DNA of 64,000 nt. Origin: Parcubacteria group bacterium GW2011_GWA2_47_26. GTDB taxonomy: Bacteria; Patescibacteriota; Patescibacteriia; GWA2-47-26. Position numbers and translations under genes: made by a program. The notes beneath the pieces were generated by a model, which did not search any database, was not told the origin of the DNA, and saw only the letters and a program-made list of their open reading frames with translations. Positions 10,917-63,263 of the stretch are shown piece after piece. Location: contig LCOG01000001.1 of the NCBI GenBank assembly GCA_001001705.1, positions 22,449 through 86,448 on the forward strand, written 5' to 3'. Within the stretch, counting starts at the first letter, position 1. Each line of letters starts with the position of its first letter.

Positions 10917-13196
10917 TTAAAAATGTTCAAAATTTCTTATGGCTCTCGTTTTCTCAATCCTCTCGCGTACTAATTTCATAAGCTCATCCCTCACTTCAGT
11001 TTTCTTTTGGGCAATATTATTATCTTCATTCGGGTCAAGTTTCAAATTGAATAATTCCACCTGCGGATAGCGCTCAAGAAAACGCTGCGCGCTTTCCGGC
11101 GGCTCTACTTCTTCAAAACGACGATTCGCGTAAAAACGATAGATCAATTTGTAATCACCTTTATACACCAAAAATGTAATTGACTGCGTTGCAGCATCGA
11201 TTTTTGCGAATGACAAACCTTCCGGTATGGCTTGGGAAAATGTCGTGCGCTCAATTGGTTTGTCGCGTTCCTGCTCAATATACTTCCAAAGCGACTCGCC
11301 CTCCATCCAACCCGGTACTGGCATACCAAGCGTATCAAGGATCGTTGGCATTAAATCCACATGCGAGGCAAGGGTTTTAATTCTCCGGCCCTCCGTCTGT
11401 CCGGGCATATGAATTAAGAGCGGAATTCGCGCGGTTTGCTCATACATGACACCAGTGAGATGAAACATATCTCCTTTTTCAAAGGCCTGACCATGATCGG
11501 TACTAATGATCAGCATGGAATTATCAAACAGCCCATCGCTTTTAAGAATTTCTAAAAATCTGCCCAGCGCCACGTCTGCCCCGGCAATATATTCCTCGGA
11601 CATCAGTCGCAGTTTACGCGCCAAGGGCTCGTACTTTGGATTAAGCGGCGGCCCATTCCACACCAACTCCTGCATTACATTTTCATATTTGTAATCGCCG
11701 GGTTCATCAAGAAACTGTTCGTCAGCACGAATATACGGTTGATGCGGCGCCCACTGATGCATCCACAGGAAAGCGGGTTGGTCTTTATTTTCCAAATAAT
11801 CCAGCGTGGGAGCATACTTGTCGCTTCCCGGCCCTGCGACACGCTCTGGAGGAGAGTACGTTTCGCTTGATATGCTTGATATTTTGACTAATCGCCCAAA
11901 CCACGAAATGTACTTGGAAAAATAATCGTTGTGCAACGCCGCTATCCATCCCGGAGCAATAGGATATCCTCGTCCGGAAATACTCAAAAAATACTCCTGC
12001 AGTTGAGTGCCATACACATTCTTTCTCAAGCGCTCGGGCAAATCATTGTACGCGGAAAGAAAGGTAAAAATCTTTCCGCGTCCTAAGTGCAAATTAGGCC
12101 CATATAAGACATATACACTATCCCAACCCAATTTATCAAACACGCGCGGCATATAACCCACCACATTGCCAGCGGCAAGATTTACCCCATACTGGGAAGA
12201 CCTTACACCGTAATAATGCATTCCCGTAATCATGGCAGTCACACTTTGCGTGGTATTGTCCGCTTCAGCATGCATATTTTCAAACACATAACTGGTTTTT
12301 GCTAGCTCATCCATTACCGGCGTGGTCGGCCGCTCGTTGCCATAAAGCGACATGCGGTTTGCGCTCAAACCGTCAAAAGTAACCATGATAATATTCTGTA
12401 CTTCTCCTTTTTTCCGGGCTTGATCTTGTACGGAAGTAATTTCTATTTCTGTAACTGGATTTAAGCCAACAAATGCATACGCGGTGCCAGCAATGCTGAC
12501 AAACAAAATTATTGTCGCAGGAACAACAAACAAACGAAAACGGCTTAACACAGTATGAATCTTTTTCCTATACAAAACGTAATATACCAAAAACATGCCG
12601 AGGCCGTATTTTTGAAAAAAAGCGGTTTTATCCGGATGATGTTCAATCACAATACTTAAAAGAATACTGCTGACAATCAGTGGTGCAAAAGAGAACACAA
12701 GGATTCCTATTGTTTTTGGCAGATCATCCTCAATAGATTTGCGCAAAACAAAATAGTGTAAGATTAAGAAAATGACAAAGATACCCAAGAGCACAGCCAA
12801 ACTTATAATCCGCGCGTCACGATCAAAATGCTGGGCTGGTATAGTATTGCGAATCCACAACCGCAAAAATATAAAATTAATTTGTAAGACAAAAACGAAG
12901 ATGGTAAACTGCAATATCTTAACAATCCACGGAGTCAATCGGATGCTAATCCTCTGTACCAACACAGTAATACTAGAAAACAAAATACTAATTATGCCTG
13001 CGGCGACAAAGAAAAACAAACCAAGCATGAATGCGGTATTAATGATTCTGCGGATATCTATCTGATACACCAGCGAATTCCACCTAAAAAGCAAATCCAG
13101 CGTCACAAAATATACGAGCGCCAAAAAAATCTGCGCGGCAAATAAGAGAAACAGTCTGCGGATCTTAATTTTTGTCGAAGTTTCACTACCGGGCAT
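10917..13196 (-). CDS. Membrane-anchored alkaline-phosphatase/sulfatase-fold enzyme (LtaS/EptA-like phosphotransferase more likely than a sulfatase)
   Basis: About 8 N-terminal TM segments. NIIMVTFDGLSANRMS; ADNTTQSVTAMITG, with Thr where sulfatases have CxPxR; ISTDHGQAF; FNLKLDPNEDNNIA. The start is ambiguous: ATG 13196 or 13244, and the track start 13262 is TTG. Confidence 0.8.
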   Translation of the reverse strand: MPGSETSTKIKIRRLFLLFAAQIFLALVYFVTLDLLFRWNSLVYQIDIRRIINTAFMLGLFFFVAAGIISILFSSITVLVQRISIRLTPWIVKILQFTIFVFVLQINFIFLRLWIRNTIPAQHFDRDARIISLAVLLGIFVIFLILHYFVLRKSIEDDLPKTIGILVFSFAPLIVSSILLSIVIEHHPDKTAFFQKYGLGMFLVYYVLYRKKIHTVLSRFRLFVVPATIILFVSIAGTAYAFVGLNPVTEIEITSVQDQARKKGEVQNIIMVTFDGLSANRMSLYGNERPTTPVMDELAKTSYVFENMHAEADNTTQSVTAMITGMHYYGVRSSQYGVNLAAGNVVGYMPRVFDKLGWDSVYVLYGPNLHLGRGKIFTFLSAYNDLPERLRKNVYGTQLQEYFLSISGRGYPIAPGWIAALHNDYFSKYISWFGRLVKISSISSETYSPPERVAGPGSDKYAPTLDYLENKDQPAFLWMHQWAPHQPYIRADEQFLDEPGDYKYENVMQELVWNGPPLNPKYEPLARKLRLMSEEYIAGADVALGRFLEILKSDGLFDNSMLIISTDHGQAFEKGDMFHLTGVMYEQTARIPLLIHMPGQTEGRRIKTLASHVDLMPTILDTLGMPVPGWMEGESLWKYIEQERDKPIERTTFSQAIPEGLSFAKIDAATQSITFLVYKGDYKLIYRFYANRRFEEVEPPESAQRFLERYPQVELFNLKLDPNEDNNIAQKKTEVRDELMKLVRERIEKTRAIRNFEHF

Positions 13197-14616
13197 AGAG
13201 TATAAATTGTCTTGTCGGAGTATGCGGGGGGTAATATACAACATCCTTGTATCGCGAATCAAGCAGTAGTTTCAATTCATCAAATGAATACCCAGAATGG
13301 TCGCGATGGCTGTTGGCTATCAATTTTTTTACTTTTGGATCTTCAGGTGAAACCCATTCCAAAAGTACGTGGCCATTTGAAAACGCATCCAGCACATCAA
13401 GCACGCGCGCAAAACCTTGTCGACTGGTGATTGCCAAATGGTGAATAAGCGCAAAGGCAAATACCATATCCGCTTGAAAACGCTCGGACGCTGAAGGAAA
13501 CTGTTTTGCAAGCCATCCAAATCTTGGGGACGGATTCAACACGTCAAGCACGAGAGGCAGAATATCGGCACTTCTTTGTTTTGCGTCACTATAAAGTTTT
13601 GACACGCTTGGCTCGTCAGTGTCAACCGCAATTACCCGCGCACCAACGGACGCCGCAAGCAGTGCATACACCCCTGTATTGCAACCCGCGTCAAATACTG
13701 ATGATGGTTTATAGCGATGTAAAACATCATACACTGTTTTTTCTTTTTGAACAAACTCCCGCTCTCCGTACGAACACATTTCCTTTTTATCTTCATAATA
13801 CGCTCGCCAATGAGATCTTTCACTGGATATTTTTATTGCCTCTACTTCTTTGATTAATGCCTTGAAAAAAGTTTTTCGTCCCCGCGCCACATTCGCACTT
13901 TTTCGCTGATATGACTTTTTAATAAATCCGCGCATTTTTTCTTCCAACTTCAATCGGCGAATAACATTGGCCAAATGAAAATTTGAAGCGTGCTTGGCAT
14001 AATGAAACGGGTAGCGCGTCTTAAGCGAAAATGGCGCGAGCCGGAAAAACTGCTCGGCTGGTAATCCACCGAGATATTCAAAAAGAAACCGCCGTGCTGC
14101 ATCAAAAAGACCTACGGAATAAAGATACAGGGGAAACAAAAAGAAATTGCAAAATTGTTCATACGGTGCCCAAAGCACGTCAGAACGCGCCGGAACAAAT
14201 GAACCAAAATCTATAAAAACCGGCTTGGTGCCTTCAAAAAAGATATTCCAAGGATACGCATCCTGCAAGGTCAAATTCTCGTCTGAAATTTCAAGGCAAA
14301 TATTGAGTGTAAGAAGTGCCGCATCTTTGAGCATTTGCGGAGTCCACTCTATGCAGTAGCTCGGGTATTGAACGCGTCGGTGCTCAATTAAAAACCCAAA
14401 CCCATCCGCAGTCTCTTGTGGTATTTGAGTATCAATCACTTTCCCCTGTTCCTGTAATCGTTTAATCGTCGCGTTTTCCATCAGTCGTTTCACGTGTTCA
14501 ACGCTATCAAGGGATATACCACGGAAGATCCGCCCGTTCCATAAAAAAACACGACCGTATGGATCCACATACGACGAGAGGTCAAAATGGATTTCTTCTG
14601 CTAAAATTTTCGTCAT
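13186..14616 (-). CDS. Two-domain protein: unrecognised N-terminal domain + class I SAM methyltransferase
   Basis: VFDAGCNTGVYALLAASVGARVIAVDTD and MVFAFALIHHL in the C-terminal third. The N-terminal ~270 aa match no family I recognise. Confidence 0.7.
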   Translation of the reverse strand: MTKILAEEIHFDLSSYVDPYGRVFLWNGRIFRGISLDSVEHVKRLMENATIKRLQEQGKVIDTQIPQETADGFGFLIEHRRVQYPSYCIEWTPQMLKDAALLTLNICLEISDENLTLQDAYPWNIFFEGTKPVFIDFGSFVPARSDVLWAPYEQFCNFFLFPLYLYSVGLFDAARRFLFEYLGGLPAEQFFRLAPFSLKTRYPFHYAKHASNFHLANVIRRLKLEEKMRGFIKKSYQRKSANVARGRKTFFKALIKEVEAIKISSERSHWRAYYEDKKEMCSYGEREFVQKEKTVYDVLHRYKPSSVFDAGCNTGVYALLAASVGARVIAVDTDEPSVSKLYSDAKQRSADILPLVLDVLNPSPRFGWLAKQFPSASERFQADMVFAFALIHHLAITSRQGFARVLDVLDAFSNGHVLLEWVSPEDPKVKKLIANSHRDHSGYSFDELKLLLDSRYKDVVYYPPHTPTRQFILYAR

Positions 14617-22147: not shown

Positions 22148-23299
22148 TCAGAAAATAAAAGATTGGTATAGTTTATCATACTTTTTTACTATGTCGCCAA
22201 TACTGAACTGTTTCACCATTGAAGACCGTGCCTCATTCCCTATACGTTCCGCCTCTTGAGGGTGTGTTATAATATGGGTAATCGCATAGGCAAGCGCGGG
22301 TGCATCATCAAGCGGAACCAGATAGCTATTCACTTTGTGTGTCGCCAGCGCCCGTATTCCCTCAATATCAGACCCTATAACAGGAAGCCCAGAACTCATC
22401 GCTTCAAGAAGAACGTTTGACAAACCCTCGGCGCGAGAAGGAAGTACAAAAAGATCCACAACTTGATAGTATATGCGCACATCTCTGACTGTGCCACAAA
22501 ACGTTATTTCGTCACCAAGGTTATGGGTAGCAACATATCGTTCGAATGACGGGCGCAGTGGTCCGTCTCCAACAATCCAAAGGTGTGTATTACATCTAAC
22601 GTTGCGCATTGCCTCCAGAAGCACGGGAATATTTTTTTGAGGATCAAACTTACCGACAAAAAGCGCGATCTTCTTATCAGGTGCGATTCCCATCTCTTTG
22701 CGCAACGCCGTCTTTTGCGCCGTATCGGACGGATAAAAGTGTTCGGTATCCACACCGTTAGGAATATCAACAATTGGGTGGAAACTCTCAACCACCATCT
22801 CTTTGCGTGTCTCTTCGCTTATAGCAATCCACTCATCCACTGCGCGCCGCATCATTTTCTTTATCCATAGTGATCCGGGAAGTATGTTGAGAAATTTAAC
22901 ATCACCGAATTCGCCTCCGCAGCAATTTTTTACAACTAATTTTTTTGAACGCAGGAATAATTTCGCAAAACCCGCCACAACTCCAGAGGTATAGAGTTGA
23001 TGGGCGTGTATAATATCGTACCGCTTTCGTAGAATAAAAAGCAACGCTAACACACCCAATCCATATAAGACTATATTAAGATATCGCGCACCTCCCACAA
23101 GTGGAATCCGGTATACTTGAAATCCTTCTTTTTTATCAACTATGCGCAGATGTTCTTTACTCATGTGCCCGAGATACGCGCAAGTAATAAAAAAAATCTC
23201 GTGTCCGTTTTTCCGTAGTCGCTTAGCAAGTTGCAATGCTTGCCGCTCCATTCCGCCAGTTTGAGAATCAAGATAAGTGAGCAGATACACAATTTCCAT
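22148..23299 (-). CDS. Glycosyltransferase family 4
   Basis: TGGMERQALQLAKRL, LFVGKFDPQKN, VLPSRAEGLSNVLLEAMSSGLPVIGS. Confidence 0.85.
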   Translation of the reverse strand: MEIVYLLTYLDSQTGGMERQALQLAKRLRKNGHEIFFITCAYLGHMSKEHLRIVDKKEGFQVYRIPLVGGARYLNIVLYGLGVLALLFILRKRYDIIHAHQLYTSGVVAGFAKLFLRSKKLVVKNCCGGEFGDVKFLNILPGSLWIKKMMRRAVDEWIAISEETRKEMVVESFHPIVDIPNGVDTEHFYPSDTAQKTALRKEMGIAPDKKIALFVGKFDPQKNIPVLLEAMRNVRCNTHLWIVGDGPLRPSFERYVATHNLGDEITFCGTVRDVRIYYQVVDLFVLPSRAEGLSNVLLEAMSSGLPVIGSDIEGIRALATHKVNSYLVPLDDAPALAYAITHIITHPQEAERIGNEARSSMVKQFSIGDIVKKYDKLYQSFIF

Positions 23300-56891: not shown

Positions 56892-58487
56892 TCATGGATA
56901 CATAAATTGTTCAACAAACTCCATATTAGGCATTGCTGGCGTAGCGGCGAGGGCCGAAAGTAGATCTTCCTCGCCAAAAATAAGGCGGTTGTGTTCATCA
57001 AAATTCATATACACTATCCGACAACGTTTTTCTAACCGCTCTCGAACATCAATATCCAAACGTGCCTGATCATCTCGCACTAAAAATCCAATCACTGGCT
57101 TATTGGTGCATAAAGCAATGGCAAAGGCGGTGGTTCTAATGTTACCAAATATACACGCACCCGAATCCGTGAGAGCTTGCTCAAAATCACCCGTAGCAAT
57201 TGTAGCGACCGTATCGAAAATTCCTTTTATCTCTCTCATCCGGTCAGGATGCGGCTTATATACCACCTGATATCCAACCTTACGGAGAACATCAATAAGC
57301 CGCAGTTCTAAATCAAGCTGCATTAACGAAAACCGAGCATTTCCAAGATTTTTTCTCCATGGATTATGACAATCGCCAACAACCAGTATTTTTTTAATGC
57401 GGGTTGGGAGCGATTCTTTAGAAAATTTTTGGCGCATCTTCAGATACATATCACTTCCACCGGAGATAATCTTGAGTGGACGCTCTGGAAACAGCCGGTG
57501 GCGGACATACATTCTTTCAAATAATTTAGCGCTGCCCCGGGTATATGCCACAAATTCGTCAGAAATAGCAAATTCGGAAAATGTATAGGTAGGGCTATCG
57601 AACATTGCCATAGCGCCTCCGTGTGTCAAGCTGGTTACTTTTCCACCGGCGTCTCGTACTGCAATTGCCATGGCGCTCAACAGTGGATCCCGAATATGTT
57701 GGGTTATCAAATGGAGTTGCTTCCTTGATTTAACATAACGACGTACCGAGGTTAGCAGTATCGCGGCATCTTCAAGGTGCGATTTGGTAAAGTAAAGAAG
57801 ATAGTGGAGATGCTTAGGCGTGAGGATAATTTGATGACGTGCGGCGACCGCTTGAACTTCTTCTATAATAGATTGGGAAAGTGTTGACAAAATATCTTTA
57901 AACTCTGATGATATATCGCGTCTGCGCATCCAATCTTCTTTGCAATAGGCAATCGACACTGCATAGGGAAGCGAGCGTATATAAGTCTTTATAAACTCAT
58001 TGGGGGCTCCGTACGTAATTCCCTTTTTTCGGCCGAAAAAAAGAGACAAGAATTTTTCTGGTCGCCAATTGTGTTGCAGATTTCGAAGCAACCTCCGCAG
58101 CTGAATCTTCATCATTTTCATTCTGCCCGTGGATGCGTATGTAGTATTGATCAATCGCTTGTCAAGCGTATCGCGAATGATGTCGCAATACCACAGTGAT
58201 TTTTCAGTATAAAGTGGGGCACTGTTTCTTCGAGAAATTTCAAGAATAACTTTCTGCGCATGTAAAAAATGATAATACTCAACTAAGAGTATACTGGCTT
58301 TAATAAGCAATGTATCACGATTTGTTTTTGATTCCATGGCAATACGCCTAGCCATGCACGCTTCAAGGTCGGCACACAATGCAAAAAAATCATTATCCGA
58401 AACCGGCCAAAAGAATTCCTTTTGCCAACGGGCAACTCCGTATTTCTTGACGGCATTGATATCAACAGGAAAAAAAATATCATTCAT
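56892..58487 (-). CDS. Hypothetical protein; the C-terminal half looks like a GT-B domain with an HP motif (candidate nonulosonic acid or capsule transferase)
   Basis: 531 aa. ILVVGDCHNPW, VVYKPHPDR, IRTTAFAIALCTNKPVIGF. The N-terminal ~330 aa are unrecognised. Confidence 0.4.
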   Translation of the reverse strand: MNDIFFPVDINAVKKYGVARWQKEFFWPVSDNDFFALCADLEACMARRIAMESKTNRDTLLIKASILLVEYYHFLHAQKVILEISRRNSAPLYTEKSLWYCDIIRDTLDKRLINTTYASTGRMKMMKIQLRRLLRNLQHNWRPEKFLSLFFGRKKGITYGAPNEFIKTYIRSLPYAVSIAYCKEDWMRRRDISSEFKDILSTLSQSIIEEVQAVAARHQIILTPKHLHYLLYFTKSHLEDAAILLTSVRRYVKSRKQLHLITQHIRDPLLSAMAIAVRDAGGKVTSLTHGGAMAMFDSPTYTFSEFAISDEFVAYTRGSAKLFERMYVRHRLFPERPLKIISGGSDMYLKMRQKFSKESLPTRIKKILVVGDCHNPWRKNLGNARFSLMQLDLELRLIDVLRKVGYQVVYKPHPDRMREIKGIFDTVATIATGDFEQALTDSGACIFGNIRTTAFAIALCTNKPVIGFLVRDDQARLDIDVRERLEKRCRIVYMNFDEHNRLIFGEEDLLSALAATPAMPNMEFVEQFMYP

Positions 58488-59032
58488 GTTAAATCGGGGT
58501 TCAATTTACCAAATAGTAATTCGTCAATATACGAATCTCGAAATCGAACATGCTGCTTTTTCCTTCCCTCTTCAAAAAATCCTAGCTTGAGAAAGGCTTT
58601 TATTGAACCGATGTTATTTTCGTAGGCACCGGCCGTCACCTTATGAAGATGCAGCGTACCAAACGCGTATTCCACAAGAAGTCGGATCGCTTGAGTGGCA
58701 AATCCTCTCCCCCAAGAATTTTGATCTCCAATCATAATGCCGATACTTCCCACGCTATGATGAGGATCAATCGGCCCCAACTTGATATTGCCAATATGCT
58801 CATTGGTGTCTTTTTTCACAATCGCGAACAAATACACCGCGGGGTCTTTTATAACTTTCTCAATATAAGCCCGAACACTCTCTTTCGTATGTACTATAAA
58901 TCTACTCTCAAGAAATTGATTCACCTCCGGAATATTAAGCCAATGCACATATGTATCCGTAGCGTCGGCCGGCTGAATCGGACTAAGATAGATGGTCTCG
59001 CCCTCGAGGCGTAATTGACTATTATCGTGCAT
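58484..59032 (-). CDS. GNAT N-acetyltransferase (RimJ/RimL-like)
   Basis: Start taken at ATG 59032 (MHDNSQLRLEGETIYLSPIQ). ATG 59047 is also possible, and the track start 59086 is GTG. IGIMIGDQNSWGRGFATQAIRLLVEYAF. Confidence 0.75.
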   Translation of the reverse strand: MHDNSQLRLEGETIYLSPIQPADATDTYVHWLNIPEVNQFLESRFIVHTKESVRAYIEKVIKDPAVYLFAIVKKDTNEHIGNIKLGPIDPHHSVGSIGIMIGDQNSWGRGFATQAIRLLVEYAFGTLHLHKVTAGAYENNIGSIKAFLKLGFFEEGRKKQHVRFRDSYIDELLFGKLNPDLT

Positions 59033-60209
59033 AAGGCAAAAGCGCATCGTATACTTGCTTGAATAGAAAATTCTTTTCCTTATCACTTAGTGATATATCT
59101 GTATGAGAAGGGGTAAGTATTTTTTTTCTCAACAACTCGCGCTCATACTCTGTTTCCCAAGTATCGTAGTTATTTCTCCATCCTACCGCTCGCGCATCAT
59201 CTTCTTTTAAAAACGACATCACCGCTTCAGTCGGTAGTCCCCCTTGATATTCCTTGGTTTCATATCCAAATAGGCGCATTTCCGGATCGCATACAAACTC
59301 AATGAATTCCACTGTTCCTTTTGGAAGATATTCTTTCCAAGCTTCAATGCTTTCGGTATACACTCCTTTTTCGGGAACTTTAAAATTACTGTGTACTTTC
59401 CATTCCGTACCTTTCAAGGGACGAAATTTATCCGTATCAAGCATGGCCTCATCATAGTCCACCCCAAGAAATACGCATAATTCCTTAATTATTCTTGCCG
59501 GATCGGATGCTAAATCTTCATATCGTAACAAATATATCCGGCCGTGGAGAGCTGGGTCCTGCGTAAGCATGTGCGCGAATGCCGCATGCTTTCTCCAGTG
59601 ACGAGCGAATGAATACATAAGCGGAACCTTTCCCGCTTTTGAGGGATCCCTTTCTCTTAACTTAAGAGATGAGGCCATGGCCGCACGCGGATCACGTATT
59701 ACGATAATACATTTTGAATTCGGAAATGCTCGAGCCAAAATCGGTAAAAATTCTATTACCCAATTATCATTGAACCCCACCCATGCAGCGCTCTCGGCTC
59801 CGTATGCTTTTTCCAAAATATGGAGACCGCTGGCAAATAACTGCTCGTAGGTAGCTCCTTGAAGTTCTTTCAAAAATGGAGTTACCTCTTGTGCCGCCAA
59901 ACTCATTCTTGCGGACAACTCCGGAACGAGGCGCTCCAATTCTCCGGAGGGAAGTGAAAACCTCAAATCACTGCATTGTATTGCCTTCATCATTGCGATC
60001 TTGTCATCCGAAAAGTAATAATCGTTTAATGGCTGCGCCACGCTAAAACCGGGGTCAATTTTATTTTGAAGGACTGCTGTACGAAAAGAACGAAACAACG
60101 GCAAAAAAGGATCACTCGCCATTTTCACTTCTACATTGATACTCAACATGCGAGCAAAAAAAGTGGTTCCACCTCTTGAAGTTCCCACTGAAAAAAGCGG
60201 ATTACTCAT
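59022..60209 (-). CDS. Sulfotransferase
   Basis: FSVGTSRGGTTFFARML (5'-PSB-like) and IIVIRDPRAAMAS (3'-PB-like). ATGA overlap with the cysC fusion. Confidence 0.75.
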   Translation of the reverse strand: MSNPLFSVGTSRGGTTFFARMLSINVEVKMASDPFLPLFRSFRTAVLQNKIDPGFSVAQPLNDYYFSDDKIAMMKAIQCSDLRFSLPSGELERLVPELSARMSLAAQEVTPFLKELQGATYEQLFASGLHILEKAYGAESAAWVGFNDNWVIEFLPILARAFPNSKCIIVIRDPRAAMASSLKLRERDPSKAGKVPLMYSFARHWRKHAAFAHMLTQDPALHGRIYLLRYEDLASDPARIIKELCVFLGVDYDEAMLDTDKFRPLKGTEWKVHSNFKVPEKGVYTESIEAWKEYLPKGTVEFIEFVCDPEMRLFGYETKEYQGGLPTEAVMSFLKEDDARAVGWRNNYDTWETEYERELLRKKILTPSHTDISLSDKEKNFLFKQVYDALLPYAR

Positions 60210-61006
60210 AGATGACTTTTAATAAATACGTACAGCGATGTTACCGCATCGTTTTGATTTTGTACAGCGGTATCAATTAAGAGATCGGGCGACGTTGGTG
60301 GCTCATAAGGATTGGTCGGGCTATACCCAATCATTGAATCAATCTCTCCGGCAACCGCTTTGGCGTACAATCCTTTTGTATCTCGTTCCATACACTTCTC
60401 AAGTGGACATCTTACATAGACTTCGGCGAAATCAGATCCAATAATGTGTTTAACCGCCTCTCGATCTTCTCGATACGGCGAGATGACCGGAACTAAAACA
60501 ATCTCAACTTCTTCTTTTTTTTCTTTCGCAAGTCGAGCAATCCCCAGATTATTTTCTCGAATATCTTCACGAGAAAATCCTAATTTCCGGTGAACCGTTT
60601 CTCTCACGGCATCACCATCAAGTACGATCACGCGTTTACCGTCTGCTTCAAGACAGTTTTTCACTGCATGGGCGAGAGTGGTTTTTCCCGATCCGGAAAG
60701 ACCCGTAAGCCATACTACTAAGCCATGACGATTTTTTTTAGCATGTTCAGATTTTATGATTCGTATGTAGAGAATAATACAAATAAACAAAAGTACAAGA
60801 GCTAACGCATATTTAATTTGCAGCGGCGGTTGCTGAATTCTTGTAGCGTATGCCAAAGCAATAATGTTGGCAAAAAAAGACAATAACAATAACAGAAAAC
60901 TCAGTCCTTTGACTGTTTTAGTCTTAATAGTCTTAACAATCTGGGGGATGAAGCAAACGGTAAATAAGAATGTTGCCATCCAACCGAGAATTTCAGTGAG
61001 GGACAT
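60206..61006 (-). CDS. cysC: Fusion: PQ-loop/SemiSWEET-like three-helix membrane domain + adenylylsulfate (APS) kinase
   Basis: N-terminal FLFTVCFIPQIVKTIKTKTVKGLSF plus two more helices. Then WLTGLSGSGKTT, LDGDAVR, ISPYREDR, KGLYAKAVAGEI. Confidence 0.85.
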   Translation of the reverse strand: MSLTEILGWMATFLFTVCFIPQIVKTIKTKTVKGLSFLLLLLSFFANIIALAYATRIQQPPLQIKYALALVLLFICIILYIRIIKSEHAKKNRHGLVVWLTGLSGSGKTTLAHAVKNCLEADGKRVIVLDGDAVRETVHRKLGFSREDIRENNLGIARLAKEKKEEVEIVLVPVISPYREDREAVKHIIGSDFAEVYVRCPLEKCMERDTKGLYAKAVAGEIDSMIGYSPTNPYEPPTSPDLLIDTAVQNQNDAVTSLYVFIKSHL

Positions 61007-61007
61007 A

Positions 61008-63263
61008 TTATTCTTTTACAAATACCTCCTCTCCTTGCTCAATCGCCTTTTTGATCATCTGCGCGATTTCCGGGCGAATGAACCACTCCGGCGGCAGCTC
61101 CCCGCTCTCAAATAATTTGCGTGCCTGCGTTCCGCTAATCTGAAGTCGATCTTCCGGCGGATGCGCCATCGCTTCCCATTCATGCATATGAGATCCGAGA
61201 TTCTCTGAGTAAAAAATTTGACCAAAACGAATTGGCGTGATTCCAAGATCAGGGAACCGGTCAAAGATTTCGTGCGACGCGGTCGGAGCATAAAAATCCC
61301 CGACACCGGTATGATCACGTCCGACTATAAAATGACTACAGCCAAAATTCTTCCGACAAATAGCCGTAAATAATGCCTCACGCGGGCCGGCATAGCGCGA
61401 GAAGGTTGCGAGCGTACCAAAAATCACTTTATTTTTTGGATAAAAATGCTGCATCATCAGTTCGTAACCGCGTATGATATAGGACGCTTGAAAATCCCCG
61501 GCCTTCTTTTTCCCAATAACCGGATGCACAAACAATCCGTCGCAAAAATTATCCTCCAAGGCTTTGAGCTGAATATATTCATGCGAGCGATGGATCACAT
61601 TGCGCGTATGGAACCCCACGACTTTGCGCCAGCCGCGCTCCGCAAACAATCGTCGCGTCTGTGCTGGCGTGAGTTCATAGGCTTTCGTGGACGTCTCTCG
61701 CCGAGAGAGTAAATCAATCGTACCGCCCAGAAGAACCGGTTTCATGTTCTTTACTCGTCGAACCCCGGGATGATCATTGCTAAGCGTGCCGTAGAGTTTT
61801 TCCGCAAAAAACTCTTTGTCGATCGTGAAGATATCCTCTAGGCGCAAAAAAGCCATCGGCAGATCCTGACGATCGGCGTATAGCCCGATCGTCTGCCCAA
61901 TTTTAAGATTTTTCGCCTGCTCTTGATTGACATCAAGTATCACTGGAATCGGCCAAATAACGCCGCTTGGCAGACGCATAGTATTAAGCACACTCTCAAC
62001 CTCGCCTCGGGTCATAAATCCTTGCAATGGACTAAACGTCCCGATGCCGATCTGTTCTACATCCATTTGCGCTAATTCATCCAATTGAATTCTTGACAGA
62101 GCTGAAAAATCGGTGTTGGGAATAGTTTTCAGCATGCGATCGACAAGGACTCCACCATGTGGTGGCACCAAAAGCGTGCCATATGAAGATATTGTCAGGT
62201 ACTCGTTCATCTTCAGATGGGCAACCAAATCTTGATCTCTCGTATTGAGAATTGGTTCCGGAACCGCATTGCCCACATGCGAAATAATTTTCTGTAGTGT
62301 CTGGACACAGTCAAATGGATATTTTCCGATTGCCGTTTCAGCAGCCAGGGCAAGTCCGCCTGCTCCGTCCAGGATGCAGCTGACAATATCATGCACCTCG
62401 GCCCGTGTTGGTTTTGGTTTATCTACCATTGTCTCGAGCAAGTTTGTCGCCACAAACACCTCTTTCCCGTGTTCTCTGGCCGCACTGATAATAATTTTTT
62501 GCAACAAAGGCACTTTTTCAATCGGTACTTCTTTACTCAAATCTCCTCGATCAATCAACAGATAATCTGACGCCTTGATGATCTCATCCAAGTTGTGGAG
62601 AGCGTCGACACATTCAATTTTTGAAATAATCTTCATCCGTCCTTGCGTTGCACGCCGCACCTCTTCCACGAATGCGCGCGAACGCATAAACGATGCTGCA
62701 ATCGTACTCACGCCTTTTTGTAAACCGATCTCAATGCCGCGATAATCTTTTTCTGTAAGGCAAGGCAAATTCCACCTACGGTGCGACGATGGATCAACTA
62801 TAACACCTTTATTACTTCCGAGCGCACCGGCAGAGATGGCCGTTGCCAACACACATCCACTATCACGCTTAGAAACATCAGTCACTTGCAATACGAGTGT
62901 TCCAAAATCCAGATGTAAAATATCTCCCAACTCGAGCTGAAAAACGATCGGGAAGGGACGAAGTGCCAGGGCATCGCCGCCACTGGTCACTTCATCGGCG
63001 CATAATCGTACCGTGCCCCCCTCTTCAATCTCAATCTTTTCACCCTGCACATTTCCACTGCGAATCTGTGACCCTTCTGTATCCAACACAAATGGAATCC
63101 CCACGTCTTTAGCAAGATCGATAAAATTCTCAAGATCTTCAAGACTCGAGTGAGACATGTTCACCCGCACAAATGATACGCCTTGATCTTTGAGTTTTTG
63201 CAGTGCCTCGCGGCTGCGTGTTGCGGGACCGAGAGTGACAATAATTGCAGGTTTGCGTTCCAT
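61008..63263 (-). CDS. sat: Fusion: pyruvate-kinase-like A/B-domain barrel + full ATP sulfurylase (sulfate adenylyltransferase)
   Basis: N-terminal half: IIVTLGPATRS, FVRVNMSHSS, VLDTEGSQIRSG, KIISKIECVDAL, LIDRGDLSKEVP, LALAAETAIGKYP. C-terminal half: LVPPHGG, GFHTRNVIHRSHE, VHPVIGKKKAGD, IVGRDHTGVG. Single uninterrupted 751-aa ORF. Confidence 0.85.
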   Translation of the reverse strand: MERKPAIIVTLGPATRSREALQKLKDQGVSFVRVNMSHSSLEDLENFIDLAKDVGIPFVLDTEGSQIRSGNVQGEKIEIEEGGTVRLCADEVTSGGDALALRPFPIVFQLELGDILHLDFGTLVLQVTDVSKRDSGCVLATAISAGALGSNKGVIVDPSSHRRWNLPCLTEKDYRGIEIGLQKGVSTIAASFMRSRAFVEEVRRATQGRMKIISKIECVDALHNLDEIIKASDYLLIDRGDLSKEVPIEKVPLLQKIIISAAREHGKEVFVATNLLETMVDKPKPTRAEVHDIVSCILDGAGGLALAAETAIGKYPFDCVQTLQKIISHVGNAVPEPILNTRDQDLVAHLKMNEYLTISSYGTLLVPPHGGVLVDRMLKTIPNTDFSALSRIQLDELAQMDVEQIGIGTFSPLQGFMTRGEVESVLNTMRLPSGVIWPIPVILDVNQEQAKNLKIGQTIGLYADRQDLPMAFLRLEDIFTIDKEFFAEKLYGTLSNDHPGVRRVKNMKPVLLGGTIDLLSRRETSTKAYELTPAQTRRLFAERGWRKVVGFHTRNVIHRSHEYIQLKALEDNFCDGLFVHPVIGKKKAGDFQASYIIRGYELMMQHFYPKNKVIFGTLATFSRYAGPREALFTAICRKNFGCSHFIVGRDHTGVGDFYAPTASHEIFDRFPDLGITPIRFGQIFYSENLGSHMHEWEAMAHPPEDRLQISGTQARKLFESGELPPEWFIRPEIAQMIKKAIEQGEEVFVKE

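Follow-up and report, generated by a model that had tools for sequence, protein, structure and literature searches.

Why should an adenosine 5′-phosphosulfate (APS) kinase begin with a membrane domain built like that of a small sugar transporter? The question is raised by one gene in the window, the 64,000-nucleotide stretch of DNA analysed here (contig LCOG01000001.1 of Parcubacteria group bacterium GW2011_GWA2_47_26, positions 22,449 to 86,448). We find that this gene encodes a single polypeptide made of a helix bundle with the SemiSWEET fold, a very short basic linker, and an APS kinase, the enzyme that phosphorylates APS to 3′-phosphoadenosine 5′-phosphosulfate (PAPS). The best explanation for this arrangement is that the membrane domain is a working solute carrier that serves sulfate activation and most likely admits sulfate, a reading that we put forward tentatively and at somewhat less than even chances. 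That the domain is a functional carrier tied in some way to the sulfate/PAPS pathway, and not an inert anchor, is considerably more probable; sulfate uptake specifically, with the substrate deduced indirectly, ranks marginally below the explanation as a whole.

A membrane domain joined to an APS kinase

The open reading frame (ORF) lies exactly where the initial annotation had placed it, is on the minus strand, and contains every motif quoted there: FLFTVCFIPQIVKTIKTKTVKGLSF at amino acids (aa) 13–37, with the PQ pair at P21-Q22, WLTGLSGSGKTT at aa 99–110, LDGDAVR at aa 129–135, ISPYREDR at aa 175–182, and KGLYAKAVAGEI at aa 211–222. Its parts, including the three transmembrane (TM) helices, are as follows.

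60206..61006, minus strand: whole fused gene, PQ-loop/SemiSWEET-fold domain plus APS kinase, 266 aa (ORF list, ATG start)
60734..61006, minus strand: triple-helix-bundle membrane domain, aa 1–91 (Pfam, AlphaFold2 model, Foldseek, hhalign)
60920–61000, minus strand: TM1, aa 3–29 (AlphaFold2 helix)
60941..60946, minus strand: PQ hinge motif P21-Q22 in TM1 (invariant in 47 members; aligns with P19-Q20 of LbSemiSWEET)
60836–60898, minus strand: TM2, aa 37–57 (AlphaFold2 helix)
60734–60829, minus strand: TM3, aa 60–91 (AlphaFold2 helix)
60725..60760, minus strand: basic juxtamembrane end of TM3 and very short linker, aa 83–94, IIKSEHAKKNRH (Lys/Arg counts, model)
60732–60739, coding strand of this minus-strand gene: A8 homopolymer at the junction of the two domains (sequence)
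60272..60724, minus strand: APS kinase (CysC), aa 95–245 by Pfam (PF01583), with the protein continuing to the stop at 60206
60680–60703, minus strand: P-loop GLSGSGKT, aa 102–109 (sequence)

Three hydrophobic helices with a PQ signature in the first had been described for the N-terminal part, and both hydropathy and AlphaFold2 bear this out. The full-length model (predicted local distance difference test score, pLDDT, 82.6) has helices at aa 3–29, 37–57, and 60–91 and the first kinase beta-strand at aa 96–101. Because TM3 runs to aa 91 and the kinase strand begins at aa 96, there would be almost no linker in this protein. A model of the membrane domain alone, with 47 homologues as input, likewise has three helices (pLDDT 85). 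Searches with the PQ-loop and MtN3 profiles of hidden Markov models (HMMs) both exceeded their gathering cut-offs, so by that measure the domain is not a generic anchor: the Pfam PQ-loop match spans aa 4–61 (E = 2.1e-13, 50.3 bits, cut-off 22), and the MtN3_slv match to aa 6–83 is borderline (24.8 bits vs. a cut-off of 23.7). By sequence, the N-terminal 95 aa alone match solved SemiSWEETs (4qnc at E = 1.1e-8, also 4rng and 4x5m) and, more weakly and over TM1-TM2 only, cystinosin (E = 2e-4).

Structural comparison gave the same placement. In a Foldseek search with the membrane-domain model, ranks 1–13 were all SemiSWEETs (TM-score 0.8–0.93, root-mean-square deviation [rmsd] 1.0–2.9 Å), the best being 4rng (TMq 0.85/TMt 0.93, rmsd 1.0 Å); a eukaryotic SWEET and then the mitochondrial pyruvate carrier (MPC; TM 0.6–0.66, E > 1) followed. 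Profile-profile alignment to the three solved SemiSWEETs with hhalign was ungapped at 98% probability, with each residue of the query equal to the Lb residue plus 2. The SemiSWEET-like size and pattern noted initially therefore hold for the fold, on which the crystal structures superpose, but not for a canonical sugar SemiSWEET, since the sugar pocket is replaced (see below) and NCBIfam NF037968 (SemiSWEET_2) scored only 37.4 bits against a cut-off of 80. LAB_N (PF07578) reached 22.6 bits, under its cut-off of 26.7, and is used here as an analogy only. Taken together, sequence and predicted structure indicate that the membrane domain truly belongs to the fold superfamily of PQ-loop proteins and SemiSWEETs but lies outside the sugar-transporting SemiSWEET family. 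Lysine and arginine number zero at the N-terminus, four in loop 1, one in loop 2, and five after TM3, a distribution that predicts an N-out/C-in topology and therefore a kinase in the cytoplasm.

The second half of the protein (aa 95–266) proved to be the canonical CysC that had been proposed, by PF01583 APS_kinase (E = 2.2e-50, 171 bits, cut-off 21.1), by TIGR00455 apsK (187.3 bits, cut-off 138.7), and by its motifs. In an alignment with soluble CysC homologues, the P-loop, LDGD..R, NN, ISP, and KGLY are all invariant, and from its sequence the kinase domain appears catalytically intact. The accompanying statement that APS kinases are normally soluble has to be qualified, because fusions of APS_kinase to DUF2061, an uncharacterised 2-TM domain, also exist (P0260, P0336, and P0285). 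Two further architectures, a CitMHS N-terminal fragment plus APS_kinase (P0342) and a pyruvate kinase (PK) N-terminal fragment plus APS_kinase (P0204), may be truncations or gene-call artefacts.

Could the fusion be unreal? One way for this to happen would be translation from an internal Met that removes the helices, as the initial annotation had cautioned. No in-frame ATG, GTG, or TTG occurs between aa 73, inside TM3, and aa 115, past the P-loop, so a soluble intact kinase from an internal start is excluded. Another would be the false joining of two neighbouring genes through misassembly or a frameshift at the A8 homopolymer; the run sits exactly in the linker, and at one related locus (L024), the PQ and APS kinase (APSK) frames are separate and overlapping. 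This explanation is effectively refuted. The 266-aa protein is 100% identical to the NCBI entry [quoted passage not shown], is known in the database only as “adenylyl-sulfate kinase”, and is recorded in identical form on nine contigs from several independent sources. Moreover, the domain-architecture search suggested at the outset found PQ-loop plus APS_kinase in eight protein clusters, seven of them beyond the window’s protein (42–63% identity) and fused through different linkers without the A8 sequence. Fusion is likewise seen in L036 and L073, both of them GTDB species representatives. Because the fusion recurs in other clusters and species, we reject the A8 artefact. A profile built on the fused proteins only found no full-length fused match in a search of representatives, apparently because clustering at 50% had placed these proteins in clusters represented by soluble CysC; the search did bring up the DUF2061 and CitMHS-fragment fusions. 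As a separate observation, the split, overlapping frames in L024 raise the idea that slippage at A8-like runs could toggle fused and split forms.

The PQ-loop subfamily and its remodelled pocket

A search with the membrane domain only recovered 75 clusters, nearly all of them free-standing proteins of 85–105 aa with 48–71% identity. In a scan of one genome per species, 72 loci were found in Patescibacteria, Omnitrophota, a few other bacterial metagenome-assembled genomes (MAGs), and many DPANN archaea, although some MAG taxon labels, such as “Methanosarcinales” on DPANN-like contigs, look unreliable. Across an alignment of 47 members of this PQ-loop subfamily (hereafter PQ), 16 residues are invariant (G8, T12, L14, F15, P21, Q22, S36, N47, A50, Y53, I57, Q59, P61, L62, K65, and Y66), and the fused proteins retain all 16.

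These residues can be read against the solved transporters. In SemiSWEETs, the hinge and gates are Gly6, Pro19-Gln20, Ser34, Tyr51, and Pro59, and the sugar pocket is formed by Thr13, Trp48, and Asn64, which are required for sugar uptake in LbSemiSWEET and EcSemiSWEET (PMC5972207). When mapped by hhalign, the subfamily retains the residues of the hinge and gates, as G8, P21-Q22, S36, Y53, and P61. All three pocket positions, by contrast, are replaced, with T13/W48/N64 becoming F15/A50/Y66 in the ungapped hhalign alignment and in the phmmer alignment to 4rng. New invariant polar residues appear as well (N47, Q59, and K65), two of which, N47 and K65, lie beside pocket positions. The altered region maps as follows.

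60809..60868, minus strand: remodelled pocket region (N47 at 60866–60868, A50 at 60857–60859, Y53 at 60848–60850, K65-Y66 at 60809–60814)

Retention of the hinge and gates together with replacement of the pocket fits transport machinery that has been kept while its substrate has changed. Judged by its sequence, the fused domain does not look like a decayed anchor, as it keeps the moving parts and has a different pocket.

In a neighbour-joining tree, the subfamily formed its own clade relative to the solved SemiSWEETs. Fused forms were found on the bacterial branch as well as on the archaeal one, nested there among unfused relatives whose genes adjoin those for ATP sulfurylase (Sat) or APSK, which suggests more than one origin of the fusion from neighbouring genes. 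PQ followed by APSK is also found as separate neighbouring genes, and the fused gene was probably created when the stop codon separating two such neighbours was lost, reflecting their adjacency in the operon.

Sulfate-activation genes around the PQ gene

The fused gene of the window lies between two other genes of the PAPS pathway.

61008..63263, minus strand: PK-ATP-sulfurylase (PK-Sat) gene, pyruvate-kinase barrel plus PUA_2 plus ATP sulfurylase, 751 aa, upstream and translationally coupled (Pfam PK 1e-72, PUA_2 1e-42, ATP-sulfurylase 4e-77)
59022..60209, minus strand: PAPS-dependent sulfotransferase, 395 aa, downstream and overlapping (Pfam Sulfotransfer_3 3e-20, Sulfotransfer_1 5e-13)

The operon order is thus PK-ATP-sulfurylase, PQ-APSK, and sulfotransferase, within the large surface-glycan cluster that occupies the window. 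Translational coupling on both sides, as first described, is plain from the junctions: a 1-nt gap separates the fused gene from PK-Sat, which ends at 61008 (TAA-T-ATG), and an ATGA overlap joins it to the sulfotransferase, which starts at 60209. Wherever context could be seen, the fused gene lies just downstream of PK-Sat, as in L036, L155, and L156.

To place this operon in a wider context, we surveyed the neighbours of subfamily genes, scoring gene families by domain-restricted local HMMs (Sat, APSK, etc.). The locus samples are small and phylogenetically clustered, and counts refer to loci of ~20 kb rather than whole genomes. A sulfur context, defined as Sat, APSK, sulfotransferase, PAPS reductase, or sulfatase within 10 kb, was present at 19 of the 73 loci and at 8 of the 21 with full 20-kb coverage. 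PK, Sat, or APSK is present at 18 loci, of which 9 have the PQ gene within 100 nt of it and 12 have it within 1 kb. When the two sizeable genes closest to PQ on each flank were classified by Pfam (243 proteins), ATP-sulfurylase appeared nine times, PK and sulfotransferase eight times each, PAPS reductase four times, sulfatase and Inositol_P three times each, and APS kinase twice; glycosyltransferases and methyltransferases were frequent too. The wider 10-kb surroundings are surface-glycan clusters (epimerase/dehydratase, DegT, NeuB, CMP-sugar synthetase, GT1/GT2, and Wzx). By proximity, the PAPS-synthesis genes come nearest, and epimerase and DegT, common within 10 kb, rarely fall within two genes.

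Several arrangements recur. Sat, PQ, and APSK follow one another as separate genes in L024, L042, and L081; the fused PQ-APSK occurs in the window, L036, L073, and L155–L157; and APSK precedes PQ in L021, L051, L095, and L096. Free-standing PQ genes also accompany such modules: L001 holds a PQ gene, a PK-Sat gene, and a sulfotransferase inside 7 kb, and L002, from a Sungbacteria MAG, runs PQ, sulfotransferase, methyltransferase, PK-Sat-APSK, and CysQ-like phosphatase. In the DPANN archaeal loci L037, L048, and L064, a PAPS reductase gene immediately precedes PQ, with a sulfatase and a PHP phosphatase nearby. This is a second, non-biosynthetic sulfur context of the subfamily. The combination of PAPS reductase, sulfatase, PHP-domain phosphatase (possibly a phosphatase of 3′-phosphoadenosine 5′-phosphate, PAP), and type I phosphodiesterase seen at these three loci was noted at L044, L060, and L061 as well. 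At other DPANN loci (L027 and L038, also L069), the PQ gene lies between the genes for ribosomal protein L10e and pyruvate phosphate dikinase (PPDK), and a Nitrosopumilus SemiSWEET also adjoins PPDK (PMC5972207); the arrangement may be lineage synteny or may be a link to C3 acids.

We also asked the reverse question, starting from PK-Sat modules. A metagenome scan for the PK-Sat junction gave at least 574 confirmed relatives. A PQ gene was present in 6 of 50 PK-Sat loci, which makes it an accessory and not a core part of the module; in five of the six it directly flanks PK-Sat or APSK, and at the remaining locus, L091, it comes immediately after the sulfotransferase. At loci without PQ, the recurrent adjacent membrane protein is a TauE/SafE (TSUP) permease of ~240 aa, always within 1 kb of the module and in a position equivalent to that of PQ. 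We detected it at 9 of 68 PAPS-module loci by HMM, with three of the nine confirmed by Pfam, directly beside PK(-Sat) or APSK (L112, L117, L122, L139, L140, L145, L146, L147, and L153). PQ was present at 6 of the same 68 loci, none of which carried both genes, and TauE was absent from all 73 PQ loci. It is possible that the PQ gene is functionally replaced by a TauE permease across modules. The TauE/TSUP permeases are probably the sulfate carriers of their modules: TSUP is one of five recognised sulfate-transporter families, a list that does not include PQ-loop proteins, and the Corynebacterium glutamicum sulfate transporter CysZ, a TSUP member, is encoded inside an assimilatory sulfate operon (PMC5840216). 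Like recognised sulfate transporters, the PQ subfamily is found beside or inside sat/cysC/cysH operons. The fused protein itself gave no Pfam or NCBIfam match to any of the five families (SulT, SulP, CysP/PiT, DASS, and CysZ/TSUP), and so our claim is that it may work like these transporters, not that it is one of their members. No known sulfate-transporter family was recognisable in the 64-kb window. Beyond TauE, a Na+/H+-exchanger-family membrane protein (PF00999) is encoded right next to APSK, with 0 nt between the two genes, in the related loci L115 and L116 and may be a further transporter partner.

The PK-Sat gene is unusual in its own right. Its product has a PK barrel without the PK C-terminal domain, followed by PUA_2 and ATP sulfurylase, with the variant motifs IDRGDLSKE and AAETAIGKYP. 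PK-Sat also occurs in L001, L002, L011, L019, L021, L024, L034, L036, L042, L051, L072, and L075–L136 and is sometimes additionally fused to APS kinase (PK-Sat-APSK); on the marine contigs L138–L154, a stand-alone PK barrel lies directly beside APSK. PAPS assays in vitro are supplied with PK and phosphoenolpyruvate (PEP), which regenerate ATP and relieve the inhibition of APS kinase by ADP (PMC9885120), and PK-Sat therefore looks like a natural version of that set-up. Our literature search found no description of natural PK-Sat fusions.

As for the rest of the window, nearly every sizeable ORF at 1201–63997 is on the minus strand, in one very long co-directional glycan-biosynthesis cluster (GC 43%) with genes for DegT aminotransferase, epimerase, methyltransferase, 2-hydroxyacid dehydrogenase, GNAT, Capsule_synth, Wzy-like, ABC exporter, and Glycos_transf_4 proteins. 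Its membrane proteins are Glycos_transf_4, DUF2079, a TM-anchored sulfatase-family protein, the Wzy-like protein, and the ABC exporter. The sulfatase-family protein (10917–13262, minus strand, 781 aa) combines ~6 N-terminal TM helices with Sulfatase/SGSH_C and could be LtaS-like or a membrane sulfatase. A 531-aa ORF in the cluster (56892–58487, minus strand) had no Pfam match at E ≤ 1e-3.

Possible functions and known relatives

SemiSWEETs and APS kinases both work as homodimers, and therefore two chains of the fused protein would dimerise in the SemiSWEET manner into one pore, with the kinase dimer tethered beneath it. ATP sulfurylase, the usual partner of APS kinase and fused here to a pyruvate-kinase barrel that would regenerate ATP, would be drawn to the same place by the tethered kinase. 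Sulfate would enter, be adenylylated, and then be phosphorylated to PAPS at the inner face of the membrane, where cytoplasmic sulfotransferases would use it on lipid-linked glycans. The fusion would fix stoichiometry and location and involve no new chemistry. The suggestions in the initial annotation that PAPS is made at the membrane and that kinase activity is linked to solute passage are hypotheses of this kind, and comparative evidence supports them. In its fullest form, the PQ subfamily would add a sixth family, with the SemiSWEET fold and no structural kinship to the other five, to the prokaryotic sulfate transporters, and in bacteria of the candidate phyla radiation (CPR) and DPANN archaea it would nucleate a membrane assembly of pore, APS kinase, ATP sulfurylase, and ATP-regenerating pyruvate-kinase barrel that feeds PAPS directly to surface sulfotransferases. 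This form of the proposal is possible but somewhat more doubtful than sulfate uptake itself.

A number of observations weigh against a sulfate carrier. A sulfur context is present in only about a quarter of subfamily loci and a PQ gene in only 12% of PK-Sat modules, and many DPANN loci have unrelated-looking neighbours (Nre, GINS, LemA, and ribosomal genes). The neighbour counts are approximate, as loci were called with a simple gene caller of our own and some starts were trimmed, and the non-overlap of PQ and TauE is a weak statistic (naive P ~0.02, from small numbers and with kinship ignored). Linkers range from 4 to >40 residues among homologues, which argues against tight mechanical coupling, and a sulfate importer would be more naturally coupled to ATP sulfurylase than to APS kinase. 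Within the pocket, Tyr66 and Asn47 could rebuild an aromatic-plus-amide sugar site.

The main rival is a pure membrane anchor or dimerisation scaffold that transports nothing and pins the dimeric APSK, and thereby Sat and the sulfotransferase, near lipid-linked glycan acceptors. The variable linker speaks for it, and membrane tethering of APSK as such seems to recur, since the unrelated 2-TM DUF2061 provides it in three representatives of clusters at 50% identity. An anchor would suit two homodimeric halves and an operon whose surrounding glycan cluster also encodes a Glycos_transf_4 initiating transferase, a Wzy-like protein, and an ABC exporter, and LAB_N, the related 3-TM domain with the sub-threshold match, is named for lipid A biosynthesis enzymes. 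However, most family members are free-standing proteins of ~90 aa that are unable to anchor anything covalently, and in a simple anchor one would not expect 16 residues to stay invariant from bacteria to archaea, among them the PQ hinge, the gates, and Asn, Lys, Tyr, and Gln residues in or at the mouth of the helices. It would also leave the association with PAPS reductase and sulfatase and the lack of co-occurrence with TauE unexplained. We therefore regard a pure anchor as unlikely, even if it is the closest competitor to a carrier serving sulfate activation.

Carriers of other solutes are less probable again. An ordinary SemiSWEET-like carrier of sugars or acidic sugars, for which the link to PAPS genes would be incidental packing of operons in a glycan cluster, is compatible with the fold and the conserved gates; Tyr66 and Asn47 could stand in for Trp48 and Asn64, and Lys65 could bind a sugar carboxylate or sulfate. 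NeuB, CMP-sugar synthetase, epimerase/dehydratase, DegT, and glycosyltransferase genes are often within 10 kb, and SemiSWEETs elsewhere are also found in polysaccharide-synthesis operons (PMC5972207). What makes this explanation quite improbable is the replacement of all three pocket residues, the SemiSWEET_2 score far under its cut-off, and the identity of the nearest neighbours, which are PAPS-synthesis genes and not sugar-nucleotide genes, with PQ directly beside PK-Sat or APSK in five of six PK-Sat loci. For the same kind of reason, a role like that of MPDU1, a flippase for lipid-linked sugars, is not favoured, as the PQ gene tracks PAPS-synthesis genes and not glycosyltransferases or Wzx. 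Least probable among the carriers is one for another metabolite, either the nucleotides PAPS, PAP, or APS or, in the manner of MPC, pyruvate or PEP linked to the PK domain. Its neighbours do share PAPS or PAP as a ligand (APSK, sulfotransferase, PAPS reductase, CysQ-like Inositol_P, and PHP phosphatases), the W48-to-A change enlarges the pocket, MPC has the same fold, and PK or PPDK genes adjoin PQ at several loci. Yet an organism that has Sat and APSK produces PAPS itself, the six-helix pore of a SemiSWEET is small for adenine nucleotides, the MPC matches are far weaker than those to SemiSWEETs, and 88% of PK-Sat modules are without the gene. We set aside export of PAPS for extracellular sulfation, because no N-terminal hydrophobic segment or export signal is evident in the sequence of the sulfotransferase, whose PAPS-binding-loop-like motif begins at aa 9; the enzyme looks cytoplasmic, which would make such export needless.

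Most prokaryotic SemiSWEET/PQ-loop clusters have no known substrate (PMC5972207), and the PQ subfamily gives an unusually specific lead in this respect, with its fusion or adjacency to APSK, its place in PAPS operons in two domains of life, its remodelled pocket, and its apparent alternation with TSUP permeases. If sulfate is indeed carried, a new fold would join the list of sulfate transporters, and the finding would account for the way in which CPR and DPANN cells, with their reduced genomes, keep their cell-surface sulfation modules supplied. Should the domain be an anchor only, a membrane-organised unit for PAPS synthesis has still been documented in organisms whose surface chemistry probably mediates host attachment.

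Among known systems, the membrane domain is closest to the SemiSWEETs (LbSemiSWEET 4QNC, TySemiSWEET 4RNG, and EcSemiSWEET 4X5M), with which it shares a length of ~90 aa, three TM helices, the PQ motif in TM1, the fold, the N-out/C-in orientation, and the equivalents of Gly6, Pro-Gln, Ser34, Tyr51, and Pro59. It differs from them in its Phe15/Ala50/Tyr66 pocket, its invariant Asn47, Gln59, and Lys65, its score below the SemiSWEET_2 cut-off, and its fusion to an enzyme. The context of the subfamily is sulfate activation and not sugar catabolism, and its hosts (CPR, Omnitrophota, and DPANN) are outside the published surveys. In two such surveys, one of them PMC5972207, the only fusions reported join one transporter to another, no sulfate context is described, and members from CPR or DPANN are absent. 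Our full-text literature searches likewise found no description of a protein combining PQ-loop/SemiSWEET with APS kinase or of PQ-loop/SemiSWEET proteins with sulfate. More distant members of the MtN3-like clan CL0141 (MPC, cystinosin/PQLC2, and LAB_N) belong to the same helix-bundle superfamily, and MPC and cystinosin illustrate that this fold can carry non-sugar solutes, including an anion (pyruvate), but their similarity to the domain is weak, as the scores above indicate. In some proteins, LAB_N stands ahead of a soluble enzyme of lipid A biosynthesis.

On the enzyme side, the kinase resembles CysC and the Sat-APSK fusions of the PAPS-synthase type in being a canonical P-loop kinase with all motifs and the same position in the pathway, and PK-Sat-APSK relatives occur in the same loci; unlike in Sat-APSK fusions, what precedes the kinase is an integral membrane domain and not ATP sulfurylase. 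The DUF2061+APS_kinase fusions also place an N-terminal membrane domain on CysC, for ~250 aa in total, but theirs is an unrelated 2-TM domain without a transporter fold. In genomic position, the PQ gene recalls Bacillus subtilis CysP (PiT), in the gene order cysH-cysP-sat-cysC. It also recalls C. glutamicum CysZ (TSUP/TauE), as each of these is a small permease gene among sat, cysC, and cysH (CysZ: PMC5840216), although neither CysZ nor CysP has any sequence or fold relationship to the PQ-loop domain. A known fold and a known enzyme are thus brought together here in a new subfamily and a new architecture, probably with a substrate class that is new as well.

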